Position numbers and translations under genes: made by a program. Shown here in pieces: positions 3,859 to 60,816 of a DNA stretch of 64,000 bases. Positions within the stretch are counted from its first letter, which is position 1, and the number at the start of each line of letters is the position of its first letter. Location of the stretch: contig URVV01000002.1 of the NCBI GenBank assembly GCA_900551455.1, positions 24,290 to 88,289 on the forward strand. Direction: 5' to 3'. Below the pieces are notes generated by a model. It saw nothing but the letters and a program-made list of their open reading frames with translations. It ran no database searches and had not been told where the DNA came from. The stretch comes from an uncultured Mycoplasmatota bacterium. GTDB lineage: Bacteria; Bacillota_I; Bacilli_A; RF39; UBA660.

Positions 3859-6123
3859 ATGGATTTTTTAAAGGATATAAATGAAGAGGTAATATTGATA
3901 TGTGAGGATGCGGTTAAGGAGAAAATACTTAGTTTTAATCGTCTTATACCAATTAAAATGATGAATATTTTGGAATTTATGAAATTATATTTGTTTAGTT
4001 ATGATGATGAGGCGGTTATGCTTATTAGTAAGGTATATAATTGCAAATATGAAATTGCTAAGATGTATATTGAAAATCTTTATTTTGTTAAGGATAAGGA
4101 ATATGGTATTGCAAAATTAGATAAATTATTAGAAATTAAGAAGTTACTTGATGAGAAAAAAATGCTTATATATAACAATAATTTTAGGGAATATGTTAAA
4201 GATAAGAAAATAATTATATATGATCTCAAATTGAGCGATTTTTATAAAGAAATGCTTGCGGGATTAAATTATGAATGCATTTTTGGAAATTATAGGGAAT
4301 TTGAACATAAGGTGTATCATTATAAAACAATGGAAGATGAAGTATTTGATGTAGCTTATAGAATTTGTTTATTAATAGATTCTGGGGTGGATGTTAAAAA
4401 AATTAAACTTACTAATGTTGATAGTAGTTATTATAATACGATAGAACGAATATTTTCTTTGTGTGGATTAAAGGTTAATATTTTGTACAAAAAATGTTTG
4501 TCTTCTTATGAGGCAGTTAGAAGATTTATCGAATTATATAGAGATTGTGATGATGTATCAAAAGTAATTTCACAGTTGGATCAAAAAATGTTAGGATATG
4601 AGGAATTAATTAATGTATTAAATAAGTATCTTAAATATGAAGATAGGGAATTAATTATTTATAAGTTGGAGAATGAAAAAATTAGTGATAAACAGGTAGA
4701 TAATGCAATAGAAATAATTGATTATATTAATTATTGTAGTTTAGATGATGAATATATTTTTATGATGGGATTTAATGATTCATTAATTCCTAATAGTTAT
4801 AAGGATACATTTTATATTACAGATAATATTGCTAAGATGGTTGGCGTATTTACCACAAGAGAATTAAATAATTTTTTAAGAGAAGATATTGTTAAGAAAA
4901 TTAAAGATATTAAAAATCTTTATATTAGTTATAAGGATAAAGATAGTAAGAAGAGTTATTATCCTAGTACACTTTGCAGTAGTTTTTTGGTGGTTGATAG
5001 AAACTGTGAATATGATTATAGTTTTAGTGAAGTAAATAATAAAATTAAGCTAGTAAGATGCTACGACAATTTTATTAAATATGGTCAGGTTTTGGAAGAA
5101 TTTAGTAATTTGAAGAGTAATTTTAAGATTAATTATAATAGTTTTTCAAATAAGTATTTAGGGATTGATAGAATAAGCGATAAGCTTACTTTGTCATATT
5201 CAAAGATGCAAATATATAGTAAGTGTGCTTTTAGGTATTATCTTAGCGAGATCTTAAAATTAGATATTTATGAAGAAAATTTTAGTGCAGTTATTGGAAG
5301 TATGGTTCATTTTATAATGGAACAGTGCCTTAGAAATAAGGATTATGATACGGATAAATATGCAGATATTTTCTGTAAGGGGAGAGTATTTACAAAAAGA
5401 GAATATTTTTTCTTAAATAAATATAAGGAAAATATTAAAGATTTACTTAAACAAGTTTTACAGGAAAAAGATTATATGTCATTTGATCAGGCTCTTTATG
5501 AAGAAAAAATAGAAATAGATTACGGAAATAATATTAAATTTGTTGGAGTTATTGATAAGATATTATATTACGTAGATAATGATAAAACTTATATTTGTTT
5601 AGTTGACTATAAAACAGGAAATGATATTATTAGTTTAAATAATTTAAAGTATGGATTGGATATGCAGTTACCAATATATTTATATTTGTCTACTAAAATG
5701 AATTTTAAGAATCCTGTATATGTTGGCTTTTATTTACAAAAATTTAATATTAGTGAAAAGGATTATAGATTACAAGGGTATTCAAATAGCGATAAAGATA
5801 TTTTGAGTTTAATAGATAGTGATTATGATAACTCTAAAATTATAAAGGGGTTAAAAACGTTAAAAGATGGATCTTTTGCTAAAAGTAGTAAGGTAATTGA
5901 TAATGATTGTATGAGAAAGATAATTGACGATACTTCTTTAAAAATTGACGAGGTTATTAAAAATATTGAGAGTAATAAATTTGATATTAATCCAAAGGTA
6001 ATAGACGGTAAGAATAGAGGTTGTGAATACTGTAAGTTTGCAGATATTTGCTTTGTCAAGAGTGATGACTATGTAAATATTGTAGTAGATGATAGTTTGA
6101 ATGGTGGTGATGTTTTTGGCTAA
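3859..6123 (+). CDS. addB: AddB-type helicase-nuclease subunit (short form, Fe-S nuclease domain)
   Basis: It lies immediately upstream of addA and overlaps it. The C-terminal PD-(D/E)XK region reads GVIDKILYY..LVDYKTG. The cysteines CAFRYY ... CEYCKFADIC resemble the AddB iron-staple. No Walker A motif is visible. Confidence 0.75.
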   Translation: MDFLKDINEEVILICEDAVKEKILSFNRLIPIKMMNILEFMKLYLFSYDDEAVMLISKVYNCKYEIAKMYIENLYFVKDKEYGIAKLDKLLEIKKLLDEKKMLIYNNNFREYVKDKKIIIYDLKLSDFYKEMLAGLNYECIFGNYREFEHKVYHYKTMEDEVFDVAYRICLLIDSGVDVKKIKLTNVDSSYYNTIERIFSLCGLKVNILYKKCLSSYEAVRRFIELYRDCDDVSKVISQLDQKMLGYEELINVLNKYLKYEDRELIIYKLENEKISDKQVDNAIEIIDYINYCSLDDEYIFMMGFNDSLIPNSYKDTFYITDNIAKMVGVFTTRELNNFLREDIVKKIKDIKNLYISYKDKDSKKSYYPSTLCSSFLVVDRNCEYDYSFSEVNNKIKLVRCYDNFIKYGQVLEEFSNLKSNFKINYNSFSNKYLGIDRISDKLTLSYSKMQIYSKCAFRYYLSEILKLDIYEENFSAVIGSMVHFIMEQCLRNKDYDTDKYADIFCKGRVFTKREYFFLNKYKENIKDLLKQVLQEKDYMSFDQALYEEKIEIDYGNNIKFVGVIDKILYYVDNDKTYICLVDYKTGNDIISLNNLKYGLDMQLPIYLYLSTKMNFKNPVYVGFYLQKFNISEKDYRLQGYSNSDKDILSLIDSDYDNSKIIKGLKTLKDGSFAKSSKVIDNDCMRKIIDDTSLKIDEVIKNIESNKFDINPKVIDGKNRGCEYCKFADICFVKSDDYVNIVVDDSLNGGDVFG

Positions 6124-10792: not shown

Positions 10793-12043
10793 ATGAAGAA
10801 AATATATACAAGTATTGATATTGGATCTGATACTGTTAAATTTTTAGTTGGAGAAGTAATTCACGATAAGGTATATGTACTTGCTAGTAATTCAATTAAG
10901 TCTAAAGGTATTAGAAAGGGGTTAATTGTTGACTCTAATTTGGTTGTTAATACTATTAAAGATGGTATTAAAAAAATAAATGAAGAGTTAGGATTTGATA
11001 TAAAGAAAGCTATCGTTAATGTTCCAGAATATAACGTTAAGTATATGTATGTTACAGGACGTATTAATGTTAATGGAATGATAGATACAGAAAAGGTTAA
11101 CAAGGTAATTAAGGATTCTGCTTATAATAAGATAGATAGAGATTATGAACTGGTTACAGTGGTTCCTCTTGAATTTATTTTAGATGATGAACAAAGTGTA
11201 GAATTTCCAGTTGGTAGAGAGTGTAAGACATTATCATTAAAGGGAATTATGATTACAGTTCCTAAGAAAAATGTTTACTCAGTTATTAGTGTAATGGAAG
11301 GAGCAGGACTTGAGATTGTTGACATTACTTTGTCTGGATTGGCAGATTATTATCAAGTTAGAACGCCAAAGCTAGATAATAAAGTTGGGGCAGTAGTTAA
11401 TTTAGGACACGAAACGGTGAATGTTTCAATAATTAATCACGGGAAATTAATGAATACTGAAACTATTCAATTAGGTGGAGTTAATATTGAAAATGATATT
11501 GCTTATGTTTTCGGTGTTAATATAATAGATGCTAGAAAGATTAAAGAGAGATTTGCTTCTTGCCATAAGAGATTTACTAATTTGAATGATGTATATGAAT
11601 TAGATAATAATATGGGAGAAAGAATTAAACTTAATCAACTTGAAGTTACTGAAGTTGTTATGAGTAGAGTAGTAGAGATACTTAATTATGCGAAAAAGCA
11701 GATTATGTTACTTACTAAAAAAGAAGTTCAATATATAGTTTTGACTGGTGGGCTTACAGAAATTAAATCTTTTAAAAATTTAGTATATGAAATTCTTGGA
11801 AAAGATGTTATAATATATTTAATGGAAGAAATAGGAATTAGAGATAACAAATATATTACTGCTATGGGAATGATTAAATATTTTAATGATAAGATGGCAG
11901 TAAGGGGGAAAGAATATTCTATGATAAGCCAAGATGATGAAATGTTATTGTTGACTCCAGAAGACAAGAGAAAAAAAGAGAAAGAAAAAGCGGTTGTTAC
12001 TAAGATGTTTAAAGGCTTTATTAGAAATAAGGAGGAAAAATAA
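10793..12043 (+). CDS. ftsA: Cell division protein FtsA
   Basis: Actin-like ATPase signature [14 protein letters not shown]...GIRKG and LTGG. It lies directly upstream of ftsZ, and its stop overlaps the ftsZ start. Confidence 0.9.
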
Positions 12044-47604: not shown

Positions 47605-48568
47605 CGGCTTCTTCTAACATATTGGTAATAAATATTCCATATCCTTTATTTGTCTTGTCTACTAGAACGTAGTTTACGGCACCAATTATATTATCATTTT
47701 GAATAATTGGACTACCACTCATACCTTGAACTATTCCACCAGTTTTTTCAAGTAAAGTTTTGTCGGTGATTTCAAATAAAATGTTTTTTGTTTTAGAATT
47801 GTCATTAATTTTTAGGATGTTAATATCAAATTCTTCTACTTTGCTTCCACTAATTGTAGTTAGAATTTTGGCACTACCTAATTTTATTTCGTTGGAGGTG
47901 ACAACTTTATATAATTTGGCAGTAGGGATTTCTTTTGTGTATGTACCAAATATTCCACTTTGGGTATTTTCTTTTACTTCACCAAAGACATTAGATGAGT
48001 CACTTCTGGCATTTTTTTCACCAGGTGAACCATCTTTACTTTTAGTAATTCCAGTGATGGTTGATTTAAAGATAGTACCATTTTTAGTACTAAATTTAGT
48101 TTTAGTAGTTTTTTCAATTATTTCGTGGCCTAGGGCACCGAAAGTTTTATTCTCTTTATCAATATAAGTAAGTGTAGCTACTCCTCTTATAGTGTCTTTT
48201 ATATATAATCCTGTTCGGTATTCATCATCTTCTTTATATAGTTTAATGTTTGCTTGATATTCTTTGTCATTTCTTATATAGGTTATAGTAACATTATCTT
48301 TGTTTATCTCATTAATTATTTTGCTAACATCTAAAACACTTGAGACGGATTGATTATTTATTTTGGTTATTTTATCACCTATTTTTAAATCTGTATCTTT
48401 TAAAATGTTATGAGTGCCAATATCATATGAACCTACGATTAGAACGTGATCGGCTTTTAATTCAATGCCAATACTTTCTCCGGAGGCAATAATATAATCA
48501 GAATATGCAAAGACGGATAAGGGAATAAATAAGTATAGAAGAAGTAATGAGAAAGTAAATTTCTTCAT
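47597..48568 (-). CDS. spoIVB: SpoIVB peptidase (S55 signalling serine protease)
   Basis: Signal/TM segment and a PDZ-like region (GDKITKINNQSV). The catalytic region reads GALGHEI ... GIVQGMSGSPII. Confidence 0.85.
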   Translation of the reverse strand: MKKFTFSLLLLYLFIPLSVFAYSDYIIASGESIGIELKADHVLIVGSYDIGTHNILKDTDLKIGDKITKINNQSVSSVLDVSKIINEINKDNVTITYIRNDKEYQANIKLYKEDDEYRTGLYIKDTIRGVATLTYIDKENKTFGALGHEIIEKTTKTKFSTKNGTIFKSTITGITKSKDGSPGEKNARSDSSNVFGEVKENTQSGIFGTYTKEIPTAKLYKVVTSNEIKLGSAKILTTISGSKVEEFDINILKINDNSKTKNILFEITDKTLLEKTGGIVQGMSGSPIIQNDNIIGAVNYVLVDKTNKGYGIFITNMLEEAEN

Positions 48569-48730
48569 AGTCTATCACTCCTTAAGACTACATTACTATT
48601 GTGGTTAATTAATTAAAAGTTATAAGATGTAAAAATTGGTGCACTTTAATAATATGGTTATTTAAATTTTTATTTATTTTTTTAATTTTTACTTTTACTA
48701 TTATTCTATTTTTTACAAAATTAAAAATAG

Positions 48731-48780
48731 AAACTACTAAGATAATCTATATTATTATTTTGGTAGTTTATTTGTTTTTT
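48731..48780 (+). repeat. 16-bp-stem hairpin plus T-run; copy A of a duplicated 27-nt sequence
   Basis: AAACTACTAAGATAAT / ATTATTTTGGTAGTTT (two G-U pairs on the plus strand), 7-nt loop, then ATTTGTTTTTT. 48739-48765 is 26/27 identical to 49327-49353. Confidence 0.6.
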
Positions 48781-48907
48781 ATAAGAATTATTTTGTTCTT
48801 TTTTGAGAATCTTCTTATAAAAGTATTACTACAAAAACTAATTTTTTCTTTTTATTATTATTCTTTTTTAGATAATAAAATATAAATTAATTCATAAAAT
48901 TAATTGG

Positions 48908-49269
48908 GTGATTATTTTGTTATATCCATTTATTTTAACTAGTTTAGCTGGTTTATCTACTTTACTTGGAACACTACCAATTTTTGTTAAAATTAAAGAT
49001 AGTAATAAGTTGATAGGTGCAGGTCTTTCTTTTGCTTCAGGTGTTATGATATGTATATCTATTATGGATTTAATACCAGAATCTATTAATTATTTGAGGG
49101 GTAATTTTAAGGGAATAGTAGTTATTTTACTGTCTTTTGTTACTCTTATATTAGGAATGGTTATTTCTTCTTTTATGGATAAGACAATTGATAAATTTAG
49201 TGAGGGAAATAGTTTATATAAGACTGGTATTTTATCAATGATAGCAATTATACTGCACAATATTCCGGA
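48908..49269 (+). pseudogene. zupT: zupT (ZIP-family zinc transporter), 5' fragment, interrupted after ...ILHNIPE
   Basis: The N-terminal 121 aa align with the ZupT N-half (TLLG..., GVMICISIMDLIPES, ILHNIPE). The ORF then reads 7 unrelated codons (DCISYVS) and stops at 49294. Confidence 0.8.
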
Positions 49270-49324
49270 AGATTGCATAAGTTATGTATCATAAAAAATA
49301 TAATATTGGTTAAAAATAAAAATC

Positions 49325-49375: not shown

Positions 49376-49846
49376 CTATTTTAATTCTTCAAGCATTTGC
49401 TTTTTAATTTTATCAATATCGGTAAAAAACAAATTTACACCTTTAGATTTTAATTTTAATAAATATTTAAAATTTTGTAGTATCTCATCTTTTAATGTTT
49501 CAACAACCTTAGCAGGTTTACCATTGTCAAGTAAATGTTCATGATCGATATATTTTTCTAAAGTAGGAAAAGCATTTTGTAATAAGACCACTGAATCTTT
49601 ACCTAAGATTTCTCTAATAAGTATAGTATCACAGCGACCATATTTTTTCATTTTATTATCTAAAATTTTTCTATATTTATCAACTTTACTACTTAATGGA
49701 ATAAACCATAATATATCTTTATCTTTAATAGTGAAATATGTTGGACGCTTTTTTCCACGTTCATGATTTGTCATTAAATTATCATCATTTACAACATCAA
49801 AATATTTATCTTTTATATGATATAAATAACCTGTTTTAATTTTCAT
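49376..49846 (-). CDS. Type III toxin-antitoxin system toxin (ToxN/AbiQ/CptN-superfamily endoribonuclease)
   Basis: 156 aa. The N-terminus YLYHIKDKYFDVVNDDNLMTN...RPTYF...ILWFIPLSSKVDKY resembles ToxN/AbiQ-like toxins (compare ToxN YLAPLTSPK). It follows the canonical promoter, tandem repeats and terminator layout. Confidence 0.7.
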   Translation of the reverse strand: MKIKTGYLYHIKDKYFDVVNDDNLMTNHERGKKRPTYFTIKDKDILWFIPLSSKVDKYRKILDNKMKKYGRCDTILIREILGKDSVVLLQNAFPTLEKYIDHEHLLDNGKPAKVVETLKDEILQNFKYLLKLKSKGVNLFFTDIDKIKKQMLEELK

Positions 49847-49914: not shown

Positions 49915-49918
49915 CAAA

Positions 49919-50023
49919 ACATTTTCGTTCGGGATAATTTATTACTCGCACCACCCGAGAGCGAGAAACATTGTCGCCCGGAATAATTTATTACTCGCAC
50001 CATCCGGGAGCGAGAACATTTTC
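49919..50023 (-). ncRNA. Type III antitoxin RNA: 2.1-2.2 tandem repeats of about 48-49 nt
   Basis: Unit starts (ACATT) at 49919, 49968 and 50016. The units are nearly identical, and every substitution inside the internal 6-bp helix is compensatory. Confidence 0.7.
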
Positions 50024-50082: not shown

Positions 50083-50379
50083 TACTTAGCATAAAACTTG
50101 CAAAATTACATTTGCATTAATATTATATGTCATTATTACTTTTTTAAACATAATTTTAATATTAGATGCAAATATGTCTATTAAGGATATTAATTTTATA
50201 ACAAGATTAGTACTTTTTTTATATTTAACCAATTCCCCAATATTATAATTTTATGGCCGTAAGTTAGGCCATAAATAGCATTTTTTACTATCTAATAAGT
50301 GTGTACGTTTGTTATACAGCCCTTATTTTATAAGAAATAAAAGTTAACAGTTATATAACAATATTTTAAAATGTAAACT

Positions 50380-50477
50380 CTTGTATTTTTAATAAACCCT
50401 TATGAGATAAGGGAAAACTCACCACTGGTGAGTTGTTTGTAAACAGGATTTATCCTGCTTTTATTTTGTTATTAAAT
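50380..50477 (+). ncRNA. Candidate small RNA or leader with three tandem hairpins, ending in a terminator
   Basis: Putative promoter TTAACA-17-TAAAAT (50344-50372). The hairpins are CCCTTAT/ATAAGGG (50407-50423), AACTCACC/GGTGAGTT (50426-50444) and CAGGA/TCCTG followed by CTTTTATTTT (50454-50477). Confidence 0.3.
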
Positions 50478-50676
50478 TGATTGTAATTTATTTATATTTA
50501 TGTTATAAAAATGGCCAAAGTTATGGCCGTAGATTTTATAAATTTTAATGATTTTTTAGATAATGGTTTTATTAAATTTATAGCAACATTATCATTTATT
50601 TTTTTATTTAATAATAAATTTTTTTTATCATAAATTTAATTAGATAGTCTTCTAATAATAAAAGGGGGTTGATAGA

Positions 50677-50790
50677 TTGAAAGAATTAAAATTTAATTTA
50701 TATTATGATAATAATGGTGATGAATTAAATACTTTATTAATTAATTATATTACTAATTATTTAAATAATTTGAGGCTTACAAATCAATGA
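50677..50790 (+). CDS. Unlisted 37-aa ORF upstream of the recombinase (candidate accessory/directionality factor)
   Basis: TTG start 8 nt after a strong AAAGGGGG SD. The product is MKELKFNLYYDNNGDELNTLLINYITNYLNNLRLTNQ. It ends 52 nt before the recombinase start on the same strand. Confidence 0.3.
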   Translation: MKELKFNLYYDNNGDELNTLLINYITNYLNNLRLTNQ

Positions 50791-50842: not shown

Positions 50843-52444
50843 GTGTATAATAATATAGGAAATATAATAAAAGAATTTTATGTTGCAATTTATATAAGAC
50901 TATCTAAAGAAGATGAACGACTTGGTGAGAGTGAAAGTGTCGAGAATCAAAAGATATTACTTACTAATTATGTTAAAGAAAAAGGATTTAATCTTATAGA
51001 TATTTATATTGATGATGGTTATACTGGTACTAATTTTAATAGACCTAATTTTCAAAGATTACTTAAAGATATTGAATCAGGCAAAATAAATATGGTAATT
51101 ACTAAGGACTTATCTAGATTATCAAGAGATTATATCGGTACTGGTGAATATGTTGAGAAATGGTTTCCAGAACATAATGTTAGATATATTGCTTTAACTG
51201 ATAATATTGATACATTTTTAGATAACTCTAATAATGATATTGCACCTTTTAAAGCTATCTTAAATGATATGTATGCAAAAGATTTATCTAAGAAAATTAG
51301 AACAGCACTTCATACTATGCAGAAAGAAGGTAAGTGGGTTGGTGGATGCCCACCTTTTGGATATAAAATTGATCCAAACGATAAGAATCATTTAGCCATA
51401 GATGAAATTGAAGCACCAATTGTTAAAAGAATATTTGCCATGTTTTTAAATGGTATTAGAATCAATCAAATCAGAGATGTATTAAATAAAGAAAATATTC
51501 CTACTTTTTCAATTACTAGAAATAGAAAATTGATGCGAAAAGGTAATGGTGGCAATATCTACGGTTATTGGTGCAATACAACTATTAAAAAAATACTTCA
51601 AAATAGACTATATATGGGTGATATGATTCAAAATAGGCGTCAAAGATTAAGTTATAAATATCGTAAAATAATTTGTAATACTAAAGATAAATGGATAATT
51701 GTTCCTAGTACTCATGATCCAATTATATCTAAAGAAGAATTTGATAAAACACAAAAATTATTACCAAAGCAACGCCAAAGAAATGATAAAAAAGAAATAT
51801 TTTTACTTGATGGCTTACTTACTTGTGCTGATTGTGGTCATAATATAGGGATTAGGGCAAGACGATCTAATGGTAAAAGTACAACAGTATGTAATTATTA
51901 TCGCAAATATAGTAAAGAATATAGATTGTGCAGTGCTCATGGCTTTGATTATGATACATTAGAGGTTGGGATAATTAATATTATTAAAAATGTTGTTTGT
52001 CAAGTGTTAGATGAAAAATTAGAAAACAAAGTTCTAAAGAAATATCAAGATAAGTCAAGTATAAATAATTATTTTAAATCAAAAGAAAAATTAGAATATG
52101 AACTAAATAAACTTAATATGACTTTAGACAACATGTATATTGATAAATTGCAAGGAAAAATAAGTGAAGAAATGTATAATCGAATTCAAGATAAATTAAA
52201 TAATGAAATCAATATTACAAGCAATAAACTAGATGAGATTAATGATTATATAAATAAATTAAATAATGATAAAGATAATTTTGATAAAATAAGGCAAGAA
52301 ATTAGTAATTATAAGAATAAATATCCATCTCGTGACTTAATTCTTAAATTAATTAAAAATATTGCTATACACGAAGATGGAAACATTGATATTTATTTCA
52401 ACTTTAAAGAGTTGAATATTATTTATAATAACCGTGATGCATAG
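50843..52444 (+). CDS. Large serine recombinase (SpoIVCA/CcrB/TnpX-like)
   Basis: The N-terminal resolvase domain reads VAIYIRLSKEDE...SVENQ and ITKDLSRLSRD. A recombinase domain, a Cys4 zinc ribbon (CADCGH...CNYY...CSAHG) and a C-terminal coiled coil follow. AAGGAGG SD. Confidence 0.9.
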   Translation: MYNNIGNIIKEFYVAIYIRLSKEDERLGESESVENQKILLTNYVKEKGFNLIDIYIDDGYTGTNFNRPNFQRLLKDIESGKINMVITKDLSRLSRDYIGTGEYVEKWFPEHNVRYIALTDNIDTFLDNSNNDIAPFKAILNDMYAKDLSKKIRTALHTMQKEGKWVGGCPPFGYKIDPNDKNHLAIDEIEAPIVKRIFAMFLNGIRINQIRDVLNKENIPTFSITRNRKLMRKGNGGNIYGYWCNTTIKKILQNRLYMGDMIQNRRQRLSYKYRKIICNTKDKWIIVPSTHDPIISKEEFDKTQKLLPKQRQRNDKKEIFLLDGLLTCADCGHNIGIRARRSNGKSTTVCNYYRKYSKEYRLCSAHGFDYDTLEVGIINIIKNVVCQVLDEKLENKVLKKYQDKSSINNYFKSKEKLEYELNKLNMTLDNMYIDKLQGKISEEMYNRIQDKLNNEINITSNKLDEINDYINKLNNDKDNFDKIRQEISNYKNKYPSRDLILKLIKNIAIHEDGNIDIYFNFKELNIIYNNRDA

Positions 52445-52458
52445 TAAATACAACCAGA

Positions 52459-52855
52459 GGGAATTGTTACTTTTATTGTAAGTAATAGAAATATTATGTT
52501 AGGTATATCTATATGTGTAGCAATTACTTTACACAATATTCCAGAGGGAATTAGTATAGCTATTCCTATATATTATTCTACAGGTAGTAAATTTAAGGCA
52601 ATATTATATACTTTTATATCAGCTATATCAGAATTATTAGGAGCAGTTATTACGTGGCTATTTTTAGATAAATTTATTAATGATATGATATTAGGAATAT
52701 TATTTAGTTTTATTGCAGGAATAATGATTCAGATATCGATCGGGAAACTTATACCTACGGGATGTAATTATAATAAAAAAGAAGCTAAGCTATTTTTTGG
52801 AATTGGATTTTGTTTTATGATTATTAGTCTTCTACTAAATAGCTTAATTTCTTAA
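52459..52855 (+). pseudogene. zupT: zupT, 3' fragment (resumes at GIVTFIV...)
   Basis: The frame open from 52454 reads PEGIVTFIVSNRNIMLGISICVAITLHNIPEGISIAIPIYYSTGSK... It is colinear with E. coli ZupT HNFPEGIATFV...[22 protein letters not shown]. The internal ATG at 52496 has no SD. Confidence 0.8.
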
Positions 52856-53147
52856 ATATATAGGTTATACATTTACGAGTAAATTTGTTACCTTTTTCAC
52901 TAAGATTATACATTGCGTTGGTTATTTTATTCGTATAATCTTTTTTTTCGTTATCTAGATATTTTTTTATATCTATGTCATTACCGCTTTTGACATCTTC
53001 TTCAAATTCTTTAATTTTTTCATTAGTAATAATAGTTCTTTGTTGGAGTTCATACTCATAGTAACCAGAATTAGAGATATAATATGCTGAGATGAAGACA
53101 ATAATGATTAGGATAAAAATTAGTTTTATGGGATTATTTTTTTTCAT
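52824..53147 (-). CDS. Small N-terminally anchored protein downstream of spoIIP
   Basis: 107 aa with one TM segment. Its start overlaps the spoIIP stop. It occupies the position of yqxA in Bacillus, but no sequence similarity was verified. Confidence 0.45.
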   Translation of the reverse strand: MKKNNPIKLIFILIIIVFISAYYISNSGYYEYELQQRTIITNEKIKEFEEDVKSGNDIDIKKYLDNEKKDYTNKITNAMYNLSEKGNKFTRKCITYIFKKLSYLVED

Positions 53148-54126
53148 TTATATACGTAGATAATATATCAGTTAAAGCGTTTATAGTACACATAACTTCA
53201 TCAATAGTATTATCTACTCCTCCTAACTCTATTAAGATGGTATTAGGTGATATATCTTGATTATAGATACCATTTACATTTGGACCTTCTTTTTTATAAA
53301 TACCTCTACTTAATCCCGGGTAGGATGATTCAGCAATTTTATTTATTTCAGTGACTACTTCAAGATTTTTTTCCCAATTATTATGTTCTTTTCCTACGAC
53401 GAAGAGAATACGAGCATAAAGTTTATTATTAATTTTTGTGGTGGAGATATTTTTACTTACAGAGTCGCGATGAATATCAATATAGTATTTTAAACTGGAA
53501 TAGGTATTCTTTTTATCTAACATAAAGATTCTACTGGCACGATAGGAATTAGCGTGAGACCAGTTATTTAATTCTAAGAATTCTGTGAGATTGGTATCTT
53601 CAACAATAGTAGAAATGCCTACGTCAATTAGTTTTTCTTTTAATAGATAACTAGCCATTAAGACGTTTGGGGTAATTCCATATACTGAAAGATTGGCATT
53701 ATTGTAGTTTTCTAATTGATGAGAGTTATATATATATACTTGCGGATTTTTAACATCCACTTTGTTAGGATCTTCTATATAATAACTTATTTTTTTTAAT
53801 TTTTCTAAATTGGAATAGGTATCATCTTCTTCGTTATCTTGATATCCTAAAATACTTTCATTGAAGATAGTTTCGGGATTTTTAAAATCTATTTTTAAGA
53901 AGAAATTGATAGTTTTATTAATTAGTTTTGGAAGTTTATATTCGTTTTGAAAAGAGATGTTTCCTCCGTTTAAAAGGAAGTTGATAAACTCTTGGTTTGC
54001 TAGATGACTGTTATTTTTGAAAGAATAATAAAAAGTATAGGAAAATGTTAAATATAAGAGGATTATTAAGATAAAATATTTAAATTTCTTTTTCTTGGGT
54101 ACTTTCTTTAATTTCATATGAGCCAT
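53134..54126 (-). CDS. spoIIP: Stage II sporulation protein P (SpoIIP amidase/endopeptidase)
   Basis: N-terminal TM segment. VYIYNSHQLENY, YIDIHRDS and ILIELGG are present. It lies directly downstream of gpr, as in Bacillus. Confidence 0.8.
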   Translation of the reverse strand: MAHMKLKKVPKKKKFKYFILIILLYLTFSYTFYYSFKNNSHLANQEFINFLLNGGNISFQNEYKLPKLINKTINFFLKIDFKNPETIFNESILGYQDNEEDDTYSNLEKLKKISYYIEDPNKVDVKNPQVYIYNSHQLENYNNANLSVYGITPNVLMASYLLKEKLIDVGISTIVEDTNLTEFLELNNWSHANSYRASRIFMLDKKNTYSSLKYYIDIHRDSVSKNISTTKINNKLYARILFVVGKEHNNWEKNLEVVTEINKIAESSYPGLSRGIYKKEGPNVNGIYNQDISPNTILIELGGVDNTIDEVMCTINALTDILSTYINEKK

Positions 54127-54154
54127 ATAATCACCTATATTTAATTATATACAT

Positions 54155-55132
54155 TTAGTAGTGATTTATTTGTCGATGAAGAGCATTATTTATAGATGAT
54201 GATAAAATATTACTTAGTTTATCTATTATAAAGTCTATTTCAGTGGGAGTTACAATTAGATTCAATTCTGTATTGGTTAGAACTTCATCAATTAGATGTT
54301 TTTGTTCATTATCTGGTAATGATCCAAATAATCCTAATAAAGCTTCTTTATCATTTGGAGATAATTCTTGGTTGGTTAATTTATCTTTGTAATTTTTCTT
54401 CCGAAATGATAGTTTAAAGGTACTGTCGTGTTCTTTTATATATGAGATATGTTTATATAAGTATTTAATTGTATCTAGGACAATAGTTACAGAGGTGGTG
54501 ACTGTTGGGATGCCAATTGCAATAACGGGAATGCCCATAGTTTTTTTGCTTATTTCTAAGCGATTGTTCCCTACTCCAGAACCGGGGTGAATACCGGTAT
54601 CAGTTAATTGTATTGTTTTATTAATGCGATCTATTGATTTACTGGCTAAGGCATCGATAGCAATGATAAAATCTGGTTTAATAGATTTGATTAAAGATTT
54701 TATAATAATGGATGATTCGATGCCGGTATTAGCCATAACATTAGGGGTAAAACAAGATACTGGACGAATGCCTTCTTTAACTTCACCTAATGTAAATAGA
54801 TGGGCTGTTACTAGGACGTTATCAATTGTTTTGGGGCCTAGACTATCAGGAGTTGATAAACGATTACCCAAACCAATTATTAAACAGGAAGCTGAATCTT
54901 TTATTTCGTTTATAGTAAGAAGATCTTTTAGTATTTCTTCAAGATGTTTACCAACTATTTCACGTGATTCAAAATCTGTAATATCTTCGAATGATAAAGT
55001 AATATAATTGCCATCTTTTTTAGTGGTGGTAATTGTTATATTATCTATTCTTTTGGTATTATGGGGAATAGCATTATTTTCAATAATTAAATCTGTTCTT
55101 ATGTTAAACTTAGACAAATCTATTTTATGCAT
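54155..55132 (-). CDS. gpr: GPR germination protease (spore endopeptidase)
   Basis: IRTDLIIEN, IIGLGNRLSTPDSLGP, AIDALAS and GIHPGSGVGN. It is divergent from rpsT, as in Bacillus. ATG 55132 follows a GGTGA SD. Confidence 0.85.
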   Translation of the reverse strand: MHKIDLSKFNIRTDLIIENNAIPHNTKRIDNITITTTKKDGNYITLSFEDITDFESREIVGKHLEEILKDLLTINEIKDSASCLIIGLGNRLSTPDSLGPKTIDNVLVTAHLFTLGEVKEGIRPVSCFTPNVMANTGIESSIIIKSLIKSIKPDFIIAIDALASKSIDRINKTIQLTDTGIHPGSGVGNNRLEISKKTMGIPVIAIGIPTVTTSVTIVLDTIKYLYKHISYIKEHDSTFKLSFRKKNYKDKLTNQELSPNDKEALLGLFGSLPDNEQKHLIDEVLTNTELNLIVTPTEIDFIIDKLSNILSSSINNALHRQINHY

Positions 55133-55236
55133 CGTATCACCTATCAATATTTTTTACAAAAAACATTGATTTTATTTGCTTTTTTAATATTTTTTTGATA
55201 AAATGGTAAATGTGTATCGGAAGGAGATGAATTTTA

Positions 55237-55506
55237 ATGGCAAATGTTAAGAATGCTAAGAAAAAAATTAAACAAATAGCTAAGACAACTAAAAATAATG
55301 AACAATTAAAGTCTACGGTTAAAAATGCAATTAAGAATACTGATAAGGCAATTTTAGCTGGTAATAAAGAGGCTGCTGAAAAGAGTTTAAAGCTTGCTAT
55401 CAAGAGTTTAGACAACGCAAAATCTAAAGGACTTGTACATAAAAATAAAGTTGATAGAGAAAAATCAAGACTATCATTAAAAGTTAACAAAATGGAAAGT
55501 AAATAA
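55237..55506 (+). CDS. rpsT: 30S ribosomal protein S20
   Basis: MANVKNAKKKIKQIAKTTKNNEQLKSTVKNAIKN... is a typical S20. The SD is GGAAGGAG. Confidence 0.95.
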   Translation: MANVKNAKKKIKQIAKTTKNNEQLKSTVKNAIKNTDKAILAGNKEAAEKSLKLAIKSLDNAKSKGLVHKNKVDREKSRLSLKVNKMESK

Positions 55507-55533
55507 AAAATCAAGGATGACTTGATTTTTTTT
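55507..55533. terminator. Bidirectional terminator between rpsT and tcdA
   Basis: Stem AAAATCAAG/CTTGATTTT, 5-nt loop, with A-run and T-run flanks. Confidence 0.6.
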
Positions 55534-55534
55534 A

Positions 55535-56206
55535 TTAATTATTTAGAATATCTTTAATAATATAGTTAGCTAAGAGAAGACCTGCTGTTGCAGGAACAAA
55601 AACCATACTTGCAAGGCAACCTGTTTTTTGTGGTTGTTCAGTTGATGAGACAACCATTATCTTTTTATTGGTCTTTAGTTCTTGGACATATTTTCTAATT
55701 ATTTTAGCTAATGGGTCATAAGAAGTTTTTCTGATATCGGTAATTGCTAGTTTACTAGGATCTAGCTTGTTAGCTGTTCCCATACTGGAAATTAGTTTGA
55801 TGTTTCTGGAAAGAGCATAATCTATTAGTAGTTTTTTGGCTTGGACAGAGTCACAGGCATCGATGATATAGTCTAGATGATATTTATCTAAAAGATTGAT
55901 GGTGTCTTTATCTAAAAAGATTCTTTCAGTTATTACTTTGCAATGAGGATTAATAGATTTTACTCTTGCTTCGGCGGAAGATACTTTTGGGGTACCAATA
56001 TTCTCTTGGGTAGTTATTATTTGTCTATTTAGATTGGTTTTATCTATTATATCATAATCTATGAGTATGAGAGTACCAAGGCCACTTCTTACTAATGATT
56101 CTAGAGCATACCCCCCTACTCCACCTAGGCCAACAATTAAAACAGTAGTAGATTTTATTTTATTATAATTATCTTCCCCGACTAGAGAAATAACACGTTC
56201 AAACAT
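55535..56206 (-). CDS. tcdA: tRNA threonylcarbamoyladenosine dehydratase (ThiF/E1-like, TcdA/YrvM)
   Basis: VGLGGVGGYALESLVRSGLGTLILIDYDIIDKTNLNRQ is the E1-like nucleotide-binding fold. ATG 56206 follows a GGAGGT SD. Confidence 0.8.
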   Translation of the reverse strand: MFERVISLVGEDNYNKIKSTTVLIVGLGGVGGYALESLVRSGLGTLILIDYDIIDKTNLNRQIITTQENIGTPKVSSAEARVKSINPHCKVITERIFLDKDTINLLDKYHLDYIIDACDSVQAKKLLIDYALSRNIKLISSMGTANKLDPSKLAITDIRKTSYDPLAKIIRKYVQELKTNKKIMVVSSTEQPQKTGCLASMVFVPATAGLLLANYIIKDILNN

Positions 56207-56250
56207 TTTTACCTCCATATAATTAAAGAGATAATTTGCATTATCTCTTT

Positions 56251-56436
56251 GTTATTATTATTTACCCAAAGAACCGATACTAAGGAGATAAAACCCGCGC
56301 GCAATCACACAGGTGGGTAATCACGGTATAGTAATTAGGATTCTTAATAGGATTAAGCATTCAACACATACAATACGTTAGATTCCCTAAATATATCTTT
56401 GTCGGTTTTAAATATAGTTGTCGTATCCTTCAGGTA
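56251..56436 (-). ncRNA. Candidate structured ncRNA of about 175-185 nt (6S RNA-like) upstream of tcdA
   Basis: A relatively GC-rich island in an AT-rich spacer, bounded by a strong promoter (56442-56469) and a hairpin (56225-56250). Its 5' end (56423-56436) pairs with its 3' end (56263-56280) over 14 bp, and internal helices give a rod-like fold. Confidence 0.35.
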
Positions 56437-56441
56437 TTTTA

Positions 56442-56469
56442 ATTATATCATAACTAAAAAATAATTCAA
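56442..56469 (-). promoter_or_regulatory. Extended -10 sigma-A promoter of the candidate ncRNA
   Basis: On the minus strand: TTGAAT (56464-56469), 16-nt spacer, TGA-TATAAT (56442-56450). Confidence 0.5.
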
Positions 56470-56503
56470 GTAATTTGGTCTAACTTTACATATTTAGACA
56501 GGG

Positions 56504-57130
56504 TTATTTTTTTCTTGTTTTTGTTTTAGGAGAATATTCTTGATTAATAATATTATTTATTGTTTCAGTTACTTCATAACGGTCTAGAAAAGATGCTAAT
56601 TTTAATAATTCTTCTTCAGATATTTTATCTATTGGAGTTAATTTTATTAAAGATAATACTTTTTGGTAGTAGATAGATAGTGGTTCTTGGTTATTATTTA
56701 GAGTTAATAATTCAAGATATTTATTTTCAGTTATTTTATCTTTATAAGTATTTTTTATTAGATCTTTTGGGGATGAAAAGATATCTTCTAGTGATTCATA
56801 GTTTAGAATATCTTTTAGAGGATAATTTTTAGTTTGACAGTAATATTCTTTAGTAGTTAATAAATTTTCTAGATGGGTAACTAATTTAGGAGGGAGATAC
56901 TGGTTGTATGTTACATAAGAATATTCTTCCTTATTATCTACTTTATACCAAGAGAGACTCCTAATATAAGGACCTTCTTTAGGAAGGGTGGATGTTTTAG
57001 GAATAACGATTGGTTTAATAAGACTACATTTAGTTATAATTTCATCTTTTAATTTAGATAATTCTTGGTAATTAATTGAGGCAGTATATTTAATGATACT
57101 GGAGAATTCTTTTTTAAAGTAATAAATCAT
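56504..57130 (-). CDS. Hypothetical protein
   Basis: 208-aa ORF. No motif was recognised. Confidence 0.4.
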   Translation of the reverse strand: MIYYFKKEFSSIIKYTASINYQELSKLKDEIITKCSLIKPIVIPKTSTLPKEGPYIRSLSWYKVDNKEEYSYVTYNQYLPPKLVTHLENLLTTKEYYCQTKNYPLKDILNYESLEDIFSSPKDLIKNTYKDKITENKYLELLTLNNNQEPLSIYYQKVLSLIKLTPIDKISEEELLKLASFLDRYEVTETINNIINQEYSPKTKTRKK

Positions 57131-57189
57131 AGTGGTCTCTTCTTTCTTAATAAATTATGGATGATATTATAACATATTTATATGTTTAT

Positions 57190-58548
57190 TTAAAGATATT
57201 TATTTAAGAGATCAGTAAATTCTTTTTGAATTTCAGTTAATCTTGATTCAGTAGTAGCTTCGAAGCGCATAGTAATATTTGGCCCGGTATTAGAGGCTCT
57301 TACTAGAGCAAAACCGTCTTTAAATTTTGCTTTGGCACCATCTATTGTTAAAGTATTATAGCCTTTACTTTGACAGTATTCTTTTACTTTTTCAATTATA
57401 TGAAATTTTTTATTGTCTTCAGTGGAAATTTTTATTTCGGGGGTTGAATAATATTTGGTAATGCCATCTAAAAGAGAACTTAGTGGTTTATCAGTATGGC
57501 TTAATAATTCGATTAGACGCATACCAGCATATATGCCATCATCATAGCCGGGAAATTTATCTCTAAAGTAAACGTGTCCGGATAGTTCTCCTCCTAATGG
57601 GCAGTCTAATTCGTTGGTTTTTGCTCTTGTGTATGAGTTACCGGTACGATATTCATATGGGGATACTTTTAGTTTTATTAATTCATCTTCAAGAGCTTTA
57701 GTACACTTTACATCATATAGGCATTGTTTATTTTCTACTTTATTGTATAAGTAACGCCACATTATGATCATAAATTTATCTGTTTCAATCATATTTCCTT
57801 GATTGTCGATAAACCCTACTCTATCGCCATCGCCATCATAACCAATTCCTAGATCGGCTTTGGTTTCTAAAACTTTTTCTTTTAATTTAGTTAGGTTTTC
57901 ATAAATACACGGATCTGGGTGATGATTTGGAAAAGAACCGTCAGATATATTAAATAATGGGATAGATTCAATGTTTAGGTTAGCAAAGACTTTGTCGGCA
58001 ATAATGCTAGTTGTTCCATTGCCACAATCGTAGACTACTTTGATGTGGCGTGGTCCTAGTGACAATTTATCAGTTATGAGATGGATATATGGTTTGGTTA
58101 TATCCTTATTCTCGATAGTTCCTTTACCGGTTGCAAAGCTTTGGCTGGTGATGATATCATATATTTCTTTTACTTCTTTACCATAGGCGTTATTAATACC
58201 GTTATATGAGAATTTAAAGCCATTATATTCTTTGGGATTGTGGGATGCAGTAATCATCATACTGGCATTGGTTCCATAGTAATTAGCAGCAAAATAACAC
58301 ATTGGGGTAGTTGCTAAACCTAGTCTTATAACATTTACACCAGTATCTGTTAATCCTTTAACTAAGTGTTCTTCTAAAGATGGAGATGATAATCTGTTGT
58401 CATAAGCTACAACAGATTTATTTTTTCCATAACTAAGAAGTTTAGTACCATAGGCTTTACCTATTAAATAGGCAGTTTCTTCATCTAATTCTTTTTTATA
58501 TATTCCTCTTATATCATATTCTCTAAATATTTCTTTTATTAATTTCAT
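57190..58548 (-). CDS. Phosphohexomutase (phosphomannomutase/phosphoglucomutase type)
   Basis: The active-site loop is ITASHNPKEYNGFKF, the metal loop is GIGYDGDGDRVG, and GGELSGH is present. Confidence 0.85.
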   Translation of the reverse strand: MKLIKEIFREYDIRGIYKKELDEETAYLIGKAYGTKLLSYGKNKSVVAYDNRLSSPSLEEHLVKGLTDTGVNVIRLGLATTPMCYFAANYYGTNASMMITASHNPKEYNGFKFSYNGINNAYGKEVKEIYDIITSQSFATGKGTIENKDITKPYIHLITDKLSLGPRHIKVVYDCGNGTTSIIADKVFANLNIESIPLFNISDGSFPNHHPDPCIYENLTKLKEKVLETKADLGIGYDGDGDRVGFIDNQGNMIETDKFMIIMWRYLYNKVENKQCLYDVKCTKALEDELIKLKVSPYEYRTGNSYTRAKTNELDCPLGGELSGHVYFRDKFPGYDDGIYAGMRLIELLSHTDKPLSSLLDGITKYYSTPEIKISTEDNKKFHIIEKVKEYCQSKGYNTLTIDGAKAKFKDGFALVRASNTGPNITMRFEATTESRLTEIQKEFTDLLNKYL

Positions 58549-58562
58549 AATATTCCTTTCTT

Positions 58563-59468
58563 TTATCCTGATGGATAATATAGATCATAATTATCTTTAA
58601 TCTTTTCTGTAGAGACATTCGTATAGATACCAGTAGTGGAGATATTTTCGTGTCCTAGCATTAATTGGATACTTCTTAAATCGGCACCATTATTTAATAA
58701 GTGAGTAGCAAAGGAGTGTCTTAACATATGGGGGTGAATCTCTTTTTTTAATCCTTGTTTTTCGGCGATAATTTTTAGGTTTTTGAAGAATCCTTGTCTA
58801 GTAAGTTTTTTCCCGTGGTTATTTAGAAATAAATTATCACATAAATATCCTTTCATTAGAGTTTGACGATATTCATCTAAGTATATTTTTAGATATTTAG
58901 TAGCGATGGCGCCGATGGGGATAATTCTTTCTTTATGCCCTTTACCACTACATTTAACTATTTGTTTGTTAAAATCAATGTTTTCAATAGTTAAATTAAT
59001 TAATTCACTTACTCTTAATCCGGTAGCATACATTAATTCTAGCATTGCTTTGTTTCGGTAATCATATGGGGTATCTAATTTAATATCTAGGAGTTTATCA
59101 ACTTCTTCTAAAGTTAAAACTTCCGGTAATTTACGATAGAATCTAGGCCTTTCAATATCTAGAACTAGATTATAAATAGATTCAGAAGATAGGTAGTGAT
59201 AAAATGATTTGATAGATGAAATTTTTCTAACGACTGAGTAAATACTATACTTATTTTCTTCTAGATATGATAGATAGTGATAGATATCTTCATTGGTGGT
59301 TTGATAATAATCTTTTTTTATGTAACTTAGATAGTGATAAATATCTATGATGTAAGAATTTACAGTAGTGTCTTTGTTTAGAAATTTTACAGTAATTAGA
59401 TATGTTTGATATTTAGATAAGATTAATTGATTATTATTAGTAGTAGTTAGTTTATCTATATTAATCAT
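58563..59468 (-). CDS. Site-specific tyrosine recombinase, XerC/XerD family
   Basis: ATGLRVSELINL, then HMLRHSFATHLL, LGHENISTTGIYTNV. This gives the R..H-x-x-R..Y catalytic set in a protein of about 300 aa. Confidence 0.8.
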   Translation of the reverse strand: MINIDKLTTTNNNQLILSKYQTYLITVKFLNKDTTVNSYIIDIYHYLSYIKKDYYQTTNEDIYHYLSYLEENKYSIYSVVRKISSIKSFYHYLSSESIYNLVLDIERPRFYRKLPEVLTLEEVDKLLDIKLDTPYDYRNKAMLELMYATGLRVSELINLTIENIDFNKQIVKCSGKGHKERIIPIGAIATKYLKIYLDEYRQTLMKGYLCDNLFLNNHGKKLTRQGFFKNLKIIAEKQGLKKEIHPHMLRHSFATHLLNNGADLRSIQLMLGHENISTTGIYTNVSTEKIKDNYDLYYPSG

Positions 59469-59613
59469 TTTATGGCCTACTTTCTATATAGATTATAGCA
59501 AAACTTAGAAAAATTAGCAATTATTTTAAGTTTTATGTAAAATGTTTTACTACTGATTTACTTAATTTGGGAAGACGTGATATAATTAATACACGTAATT
59601 GTAGGTGAAGGAT

Positions 59614-60816
59614 ATGGAGAAATTATTAGCTATTAAGATGCGTCCAACAAAATTAGAGGAAGTTATTGGGCAAAAAAATTTGATAGGTCCTGGGAAGGTT
59701 CTTACGAATTTAGTTAAAAATAAACGTTTATTTTCAATGATTTTGTATGGTAAACCAGGAATAGGAAAAACTTCAATTGCTCTTTCTTTGGTAAGTGAAC
59801 TTGGAGTTAGATATCGAATGCTTAATGCAGTTGTTAATAATAAGAAGGATTTTGATACGGCAGTTAATGAAGCAAAGATGTATAATGGTCTTGTTTTGAT
59901 TATGGATGAGATACATAGATTAAATAAAGATAAACAAGATTTATTATTACCGGTATTAGAGAGTGGTTTAATTACTTTAATTGGGATGACTACTTCTAAT
60001 CCTTATCATAGTATTAATCCAGCTATTAGAAGTAGATGTCAATTATATCAATTAGAGGAACTTAGGTATGAAGATATAACTAAGGCAATAGATTTGGTTA
60101 TTAAAAAGAATGTTTTACCTGGTTTAAAGGTTAGTGATGAGGCTAAAGATTATATTGCTAATATGGCAAAGAATGATTTACGCTATGCTTATAATTTGTT
60201 AGAGGTGGCTTATTATTCTTCAGATAATTATGAGATAACGGTAGATAAATTGGTAAATATTTGTAATAAGCCTAATTTGTTTCACGATAAGAATCAGGAT
60301 GGATACTATGATTTACTTAGTGCTTTTCAAAAGTCTATTAGAGGAAGTGATGTGCACGCAGCAGTATATTATTTAGCTAGATTAATTGAGGGTGATGAAT
60401 TAGAGGCTATATGCCGTAGAATGGCCGTTATTGTATATGAAGATATTGGCCTTGCGAATCCGGGGATGGGACCTAAAGTAATGGCGGCTATTGATAGTGC
60501 TTTAATGTTGGGTCTACCAGAGGCTAGGATTCCCTTGGCAGAGGTAGTAATTGAGATGGCTTTATCTCCTAAATCTAATAGTGCAGTTATGGCTATTGAT
60601 AGGGCTATACAAATAATTGATACAATGGATACGGGGAATGTGCCTAGTCATTTGAAGAATCCTAGTAGTGAATATAAATATCCACATAATTATAAGAATA
60701 GTTATGTAAAACAACAATATTTACCTGATAAAATTAAGGATGTTAAAATATATATGCCAAGAGAGAATAAAAATGAGTTAATACTTAAGGAAATATTAAA
60801 TAAGTTAGAAAAATAA
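59614..60816 (+). CDS. rarA: Replication-associated recombination protein A (RarA/MgsA AAA+ ATPase)
   Basis: MRPTKLEEVIGQ, Walker A GKPGIGKTS, Walker B LIMDEIHRLNK, and the C-terminal MgsA block FQKSIRGSDVHAAVYYLARL. ATG 59614 follows an AGGTGAAGG SD. Confidence 0.9.
   Translation: MEKLLAIKMRPTKLEEVIGQKNLIGPGKVLTNLVKNKRLFSMILYGKPGIGKTSIALSLVSELGVRYRMLNAVVNNKKDFDTAVNEAKMYNGLVLIMDEIHRLNKDKQDLLLPVLESGLITLIGMTTSNPYHSINPAIRSRCQLYQLEELRYEDITKAIDLVIKKNVLPGLKVSDEAKDYIANMAKNDLRYAYNLLEVAYYSSDNYEITVDKLVNICNKPNLFHDKNQDGYYDLLSAFQKSIRGSDVHAAVYYLARLIEGDELEAICRRMAVIVYEDIGLANPGMGPKVMAAIDSALMLGLPEARIPLAEVVIEMALSPKSNSAVMAIDRAIQIIDTMDTGNVPSHLKNPSSEYKYPHNYKNSYVKQQYLPDKIKDVKIYMPRENKNELILKEILNKLEK

Follow-up and report, generated by a model that had tools for sequence, protein, structure and literature searches.

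Attachment sites around a GA core of a probable large-serine-recombinase mini-element in the zupT gene of an uncultured Mycoplasmatota bacterium

TndX of Tn5397 (Clostridioides difficile) and TnpX of Tn4451/Tn4453 (Clostridium perfringens) are known as the clostridial "large resolvases". Both enzymes are reported to make 2-bp staggered cuts at GA; GA then flanks the element on either side and occurs once in the joint of the circle (PMC3672683). Cutting at GA by TndX has also been reported elsewhere, together with a preference of Tn5397/TndX for DNA coding for a conserved protein motif, the Fic domain (PMC4430133). The model for A118-type integrases predicts a copy of the attP distal motif in attB, moved inward by 5 bp (PMC3783163), and in the gin element a short core is flanked by the imperfect inverted repeat of its att sites (PMC5595907). 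In the open-access literature we found no paper linking zupT with a serine recombinase. Here, we report that zupT in the window, i.e., the whole 64,000-nucleotide stretch of DNA that was analyzed, is interrupted by a 3,189-bp element with a 533-aa large serine recombinase and a CptIN toxin-antitoxin module. Judged by sequence similarity, the closest characterized relatives of this recombinase are TndX and TnpX.

The recombinase gene (50843..52444, + strand) encodes a protein with the catalytic serine at Ser21 and matches to Pfam Resolvase (PF00239, 82 bits), Recombinase (PF07508, 80.7 bits) and Zn_ribbon_recom (PF13408, 34 bits). The stretch around the catalytic serine, YIRLS21KEDE, was aligned with YERLSRDDD of TnpX. 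TndX shares 33.5% identity with it along the full length (aa 14-515, E 2e-81), the catalytic domain of TnpX (PDB 2MHC) is matched at E 1e-30, and SprA/YokA (PDB) is aligned over aa 14-509 at E 1.7e-24. We infer from weak coiled-coil-like matches that aa 380-490 may be of coiled-coil nature. By these comparisons the protein is a complete, intact large serine recombinase. The sequence-only reading had assigned the system to the large serine recombinases, which agrees with the presence of all three domains, the 2-bp GA core and the dyad arms of attP described below. Relatives of the recombinase are numerous (90-50% identity), and a homologue at E <1e-100 is present in 149 of the 401 genomes of the host family. 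As a separate observation, the G000 genome of ~1.06 Mb carries at least four to five further large serine recombinases (contigs C4, C7, and C11; L002-L007), the best of them 39% identical, and the small-genome gut lineage of the host is unusually rich in large-serine-recombinase elements.

We consider it very probable that a 3,189-bp integrative mini-element was inserted at GA by its own large serine recombinase, with attL at 49243-49295 and attR at 52431-52483. The size counts one copy of GA, and 3,187 bp lie between both GA copies; the G+C content is 23.8% in the element vs 26.8% in the window. The 5' part of zupT (48908..49269, + strand; ZIP transporter, Pfam Zip PF02535) ends with ...ILHNIPE at the crossover, and the 3' part (52457..52855, + strand; Pfam Zip) resumes on the other side. 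On the left, the host arm or B half-site (49243..49267, codons ...I-I-L-H-N-I-P) is followed by GA (49268..49269) and by the element arm or P' half-site (49270..49295), in which a proximal AGATTGC (49270-49276; reverse complement GCAATCT) and a distal TATGTATCA (49283-49291) are recognized. On the right, the element arm or P half-site (52431..52456) contains the distal TGATGCATA (52435-52443) and the proximal ACAACCA (52450-52456), followed by GA (52457..52458) and the host arm or B' half-site (52459..52483, codons G-I-V-T-F-I-V-S); all six features are given on the + strand. The two GA copies and the two distal half-sites had been placed at exactly these coordinates by the sequence-only reading, and all of them were found correct.

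The distal TGATGCATA overlaps the last codons and the stop codon of the recombinase gene: the sequence CGT GAT GCA TAG (R-D-A-stop) lies within the attR-side arm of attP, as had been noticed before. The same arrangement, in which the P arm overlaps the last recombinase codons, was found in seven of the seven elements with both ends available. We also noticed that the recombinase frame runs in frame across attR into the 3' part of zupT, from which it is separated just by TAG and TAA (window 52442-52470). A 668-aa homologue (P0019, 73% identity) has a Zip domain fused at its C-terminus, indicating that the stop has been lost in some elements.

When 49269 is joined to 52459, the zupT frame is open over 252 aa and contains the junction peptide ILHNIPEGIVTFIVSN, which matches the intact ZupT of genus relatives (MIAIILHNIPEGIVTFIVSN); the restoration of the zupT frame claimed beforehand is thus real. 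CC (49265-49266 and 52454-52455), two bases upstream of GA, is also common to attL and attR of the window, and a crossover at CC also restores the zupT frame, with the Pro codon as CCA instead of CCG. Genus relatives were considered as empty sites: zupT is intact in nine of them, and their Pro codon is CCA, CCT, CCC, or CCG. This variation makes them useless for separating CC from GA. Metagenome contigs were then pattern-scanned with N at the ambiguous base, which returned one contig, L054. It is collinear with window 47840-49269 (99.72% identity) and with 52454-60000 (99.51%), i.e., it represents the same species without the element, and the host arms of both attL and attR are the same in it. 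Its empty site reads CACAATATTCCG-GA-GGGAATTGTT, i.e., CCG-GA-GGG. The base at -1 is G, as in attL (A in attR), and the base at +1 is G, as in attR (A in attL). The left alignment stops at 49269 and the mismatch-free alignment on the right begins at the GA of attR, so that L054 overlaps both flanks by exactly GA with zero mismatch and without target duplication beyond GA. Because the base at -1 comes from attL and the base at +1 from attR, strand exchange is confined to GA, and we read the exchange between attL and attR of the window as exactly this dinucleotide.

The empty site also decides between GA and CC in the way the sequence-only reading had laid out. It had proposed GA and named an empty site in relatives placing the junction elsewhere, for example at CC, as evidence to the contrary; CCG-GA-GGG is what GA predicts, while CC would give CCA-GA-GGG. 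The empty site and the window differ at ~0.3-0.5% of bases, and a synonymous G/A strain difference would fall at -1 by chance in ~0.5% of cases, a possibility against which the relatives bearing TCA (see below) argue independently. The attR of the relatives has TC at the position where the host has CC. Symmetry does not favor CC either: attP scores 5/24 when centred on CC (shift -3) vs 14/24 at GA, and attB scores 14/40 vs 18/40. We regard a crossover at CC as hardly credible and continue with GA.

Homologous elements were the second source of evidence. The junctions of 13 distinct elements, each with a recombinase sharing at least 57% identity with that of the window, were determined, and both ends were available in seven of them: the window element, L098, L096, L093, L055, L050, and L097. 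In the attR of most relatives, CAATCA-GA stands where the host needs a Pro codon CCN; TCA in place of this codon means that those bases are derived from the element and that the crossover lies 3' of them. The bases common to attL and attR are GA (or separately CC) in the window, GA alone in L098, CTGA in L096, GAAG in L093, CAGA in L055, GA or GG in L050, and CCAGAAGGT in L097. The sole dinucleotide possible in all seven pairs is GA.

The attP of the window was rebuilt as TGATGCAT-N7-CAACCA-GA-AGATTGC-N6-TATGTATCA. The half-sites TGATGCATA and TATGTATCA are 8/9 complementary, each is 13 nt from GA, and 6 of the 13 inner positions are symmetric, in full agreement with what had been read from the window; counted outward from GA, the symmetric positions are 2, 4-6, 8-9, 14-17, and 19-22. 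This amounts to 14/24 at GA vs no more than 10 when a 2-bp or 1-bp centre is moved by as much as 8 bp, with P ~0.001 in arm shuffles. The symmetry of the window attP exceeds chance: chance symmetry was rejected as an explanation, given that the dyad peaks at the GA centre alone and that the shuffle P is low. Across the seven elements, the rebuilt attP sites score 14, 16, 13, 16, 17, 21, and 20 of 24 about GA, compared with at most 11 (2-bp) and at most 13 (1-bp) at other centres within 8 bp, and the arm-shuffle P ranges from 0.0016 to <5e-5. Two more distant elements that target an ATPase gene behave in the same way (L102, a 5.4-kb element, 20/26; L100, a 9.5-kb element, 17/26), giving a GA-centred attP dyad in nine independent elements in total. 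Homologous elements lacking the half-sites had been named as a second kind of contrary evidence; the half-sites are kept and are always symmetric about GA.

We found that the proximal block of attP, CAAYC(A/T), is kept throughout, and that a distal block of 8-9 bp is present in both arms. The P' half-site is kept as GA-AGRTTGYA....YATGTATCA in L050, L055, L093, and L096, and the P half-site of the relatives reads (A/G)TGATGC(A/C)T....CAAYCA-GA. The distal motif itself differs between clades, with both arms changing together: it is TGATRCAT in the window clade, ACATTACAT in L097, and CTTTCC(C/A)TAT(T/C)GATAACAATCA in L098. This co-variation of the arms is the strongest sign that the same protein would read both of them. 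The attL of one further relative (L094) was left out because of a run of 26 N at ~11430-11460, just inside attL and flanked by duplicated AAGATTGTA, which is probably a scaffolding gap or masking.

The distal motif was also looked for in attB. The B half-site of the window attL contains a copy of the attP distal motif displaced 5 bp toward the centre, and in seven of the seven elements the best match between the distal block of attP and the left arm of attB (the L-H-N-I-P codons) occurs at +5 bp, with 6-9 of 12 positions matching; please note that this comparison is exploratory and concerns AT-rich coding DNA. In the right arm of attB of the seven elements, there is no peak for a shifted distal motif. 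The left-arm match seems to fit the prediction for A118-type integrases, and we regard it as supportive but exploratory. A match confined to the left arm fits the target data as well, because the left arm is common to both zupT motifs, whose right arms agree over only ~7 bp.

The attB reconstructed from the window is ATTCC-G-GA-G-GGAAT. The palindrome described in the sequence-only reading is present, perfectly symmetric at positions 2-6, and positions 2-6 are symmetric in all hosts; as an independent signal for the crossover, however, it does not stand. Symmetry between the B' half-site and the B arm is limited to these positions, and the palindrome is largely a by-product of the target, because the Pro-Glu-Gly codons CCN GAR GGN form a dyad centred on the first two bases of the Glu codon. 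Each of the 13 elements interrupts a ZIP-family gene at an HNxPEG motif, with GA in the Glu codon as the insertion point. Seven of them occupy the first HNxPEG motif of zupT, four the second (L028/L071, L059-L061, L064/L093, and L068/L096), and two a ZIP paralogue identified by Pfam (L058 and L069/L097). In the window, the second HNIPEG-coding motif (CACAATATTCCAGAGGGAATTAGT, 52532..52555, + strand) is unoccupied; it is identical to attB at 21/24 positions, related elements have integrated at exactly such a motif elsewhere, and it would be a natural potential secondary attB. The element of L093 (motif 2) is 92% identical over 4.0 kb to that of L055 (motif 1), and L093 and L094 have the same P arms and share 93.5% identity between their recombinases. 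Such near-identical elements and recombinases at motifs 1 and 2 indicate that one type of enzyme uses both motifs.

A sister clade with 50-55% identity (L072, L073, L075-L078, L080, L100, and L102) is inserted in genes for P-type cation ATPases, again at the GA of a Glu codon, here that of the PEGLP motif (TM4), ...CCA-GA-AGG-CTN-CC, and the more distant L029 and L030 (~50% identity) are located in a gene for an ABC ATPase. In every relative, it is the 3' part of the target gene that the recombinase gene adjoins. It is conceivable, at slightly less than an even chance in our estimate, that the clade reads the Pro-Glu-Gly codon string itself, in which CCN-GA-R-GG offers a built-in dyad around GA. 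If this is true, such a clade would hop between unrelated metal-transporter genes sharing a PEG motif, i.e., the HNxPEG copies 1 and 2 of ZupT, the ZIP paralogue, and the PEGLP motif of the P-type ATPase; the outer arms alone would need retuning, and the clade would amount to a set of serine integrases retargeted in nature while their core stays fixed. The preference of the clade for PEG-coding motifs in metal-transporter genes is a modest added point.

The cargo of the window element is a type III toxin-antitoxin module. The CptN toxin gene (49376..49846, - strand) matches NCBIfam NF047359 CptIN with 161.8 bits (cutoff 90), and its product matches the CptN of PDB 4RMO at E 1.3e-17. Directly upstream on the same strand, a 49-nt tandem repeat of 2.1 copies (49917..50020; Tandem Repeats Finder, period 49, 87% matches) is presumed to be the cptI antitoxin RNA, so that a CptN-family toxin with tandem repeats 5' of its gene is present as in CptIN systems. 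PADLOC left CptN unmatched, whereas NCBIfam matched it, and an Rfam search of the element matched zero families, the cptI repeats included. About 800 bp of the element are without a long ORF. Between the cptI repeats and a small ORF, this non-coding stretch contains several G+C-containing hairpins and a terminator-like stem with a T-run (window 50240-50480), none of which is matched by Rfam. The small ORF, 37 codons with a strong ribosome-binding site (50677..50790, + strand), lies 52 nt upstream of the recombinase gene. Three of the seven elements (the window, L098, and L097) have an ORF of 37-42 codons with a strong Shine-Dalgarno sequence directly 5' of the recombinase gene, at 2249-2377 of the L098 element and at 4192-4386 of the L097 element, with the common pattern LKFNLYF.ENGE..LI...I.YLK; upstream of the recombinase gene in the four other relatives, no counterpart of the small ORF is present. 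The ORF may encode an accessory or directionality factor. In relatives the cargo varies: L050 has CptIN like the window, L055 and L093 have an acetyltransferase and an ASCH protein, L058 has an ORF6N protein, and L059 is a conjugative element with a T4SS coupling protein (TraG/VirD4-like) and a sortase. The recombinase of L059-L061, 64% identical to that of the window, stands at the end of this larger element in zupT motif 2. Recombinases of the same clade also occur in MAGs labelled Mycoplasmatota and Bacilli.

Is the window element still mobile? A recombinase identical to that of the window is present at the same site in nine contigs from other samples, so that, with one empty site and nine filled contigs within the species, the element is polymorphic. 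A 3,188-bp contig (L047), close to the element in length, was for this reason suspected to be a circle; it contains zupT 3' DNA and is an integrated copy. The predicted attP joint, ...AAATACAACCA-GA-AGATTGCATAAG..., had no match among the viral contigs searched, and the circular junction was not found. This result, together with the lack of a proven directionality factor, would suit an immobile relic whose symmetric arms are fossils on which the recombinase no longer acts. We think a relic highly improbable: the recombinase ORF is intact and retains its catalytic serine and its three domains, nine contigs of different samples encode the identical protein, the empty site belongs to a strain that is >99.5% identical, and the arms are conserved and co-varying across relatives.

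Somewhat less improbable, though still unlikely in our view, is that the att sites are as read and the element has been domesticated in the manner of skin or gin, being no longer freely mobile and excised on schedule to rebuild zupT, in the sporulating mother cell or under zinc limitation. Excision restores zupT exactly, the small ORF upstream of the recombinase recalls GirX of gin (PMC5595907), and sporulation genes adjoin zupT, namely those for a spoIVB-type Peptidase_S55, SpoIIP, and the germination protease. The interrupted gene, however, is a ZIP metal transporter rather than a late sporulation gene, and the relatives hit a ZIP paralogue or a P-type ATPase; zupT is not among the known sporulation genes. 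The polymorphism within the species, the varied cargo of the clade including a conjugative element with a T4SS coupling protein (L059), the occurrence of the clade in MAGs of both labels, and the near-identical elements at two different zupT sites all speak against domestication. Ongoing horizontal mobility fits better. Biologically, the element is a minimal vehicle spreading a phage-defence-type toxin-antitoxin module, at the price of a zinc transporter.

The following mechanism may be proposed. The window recombinase (50843-52444) would have recombined its pseudo-palindromic attP of ~50 bp with an attB inside zupT, making 2-bp staggered cuts at the GA of the Glu codon in the first HNIPEG motif. 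By analogy with solved complexes of serine integrases, the recombinase domain would recognize the proximal CAAYC(A/T) and the zinc ribbon the distal block. The left arm of attB (the L-H-N-I-P codons) carries the distal motif 5 bp nearer to the centre. Since GA is not a palindrome, the orientation of insertion is fixed. The element probably still excises, either unaided as TndX and TnpX do or with the product of the 37-aa ORF as a directionality factor, like GirX.

In comparison with known systems, the window system resembles TndX in its GA core and in the targeting of DNA that codes for a protein motif. It differs in that identity is about a third, the window enzyme being a homologue and not an orthologue, and in its targets: TndX and TnpX serve transposons of 6-21 kb and tolerate many targets with a central GA, while 13 of 13 elements with recombinases at least 57% identical to that of the window are in one motif of ZIP genes, so that the window system appears to be far more site-specific than TndX. 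TndX excises without a helper, whereas gin uses the small protein GirX (PMC5595907). With the phage-type serine integrases (Listeria A118/LI; SprA of SPbeta, PDB 9DXH), the window enzyme shares the domain order of catalytic domain, recombinase domain, and zinc ribbon with its long insert, although the similarity to SprA is distant (E 1.7e-24). Like that of A118/LI, its attP is ~50 bp long and pseudo-palindromic around a 2-bp core; the distal motif, which in attP lies ~15-23 bp from the centre, may also be comparable in its 5-bp inward shift in attB (PMC3783163), here in the left attB arm alone. Unlike A118 and SprA, the window element is not a phage, and its cargo is a toxin-antitoxin module. 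With gin (gerE of Bacillus cereus ATCC 10987; GirC and GirX) and skin (sigK), it has in common that a small non-prophage element splits a gene precisely; the gin recombinase is also a large serine recombinase, and a small ORF adjoins the recombinase gene in gin as in the window element. The cut of gin is predicted at AA within a 9-bp core (PMC5595907), and the core of the window is GA. Unlike in gin and skin, the target is a metal transporter and not a sporulation gene, the element is polymorphic in the species, and its relatives ride on conjugative elements. What is gained is that the att sites of an uncharacterized serine recombinase have been defined to the base with no experiment, giving a ready-made attP/attB pair, and that a natural series of enzymes has come to light in which the GA core is constant and the arms and targets vary (two motifs in one gene, a paralogue, and a P-type ATPase), which is useful for studying how specificity changes in serine integrases. 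Existing knowledge of how large serine recombinases work is unchanged by these results, and we consider the window system a well-supported new example of the known large-serine-recombinase systems.
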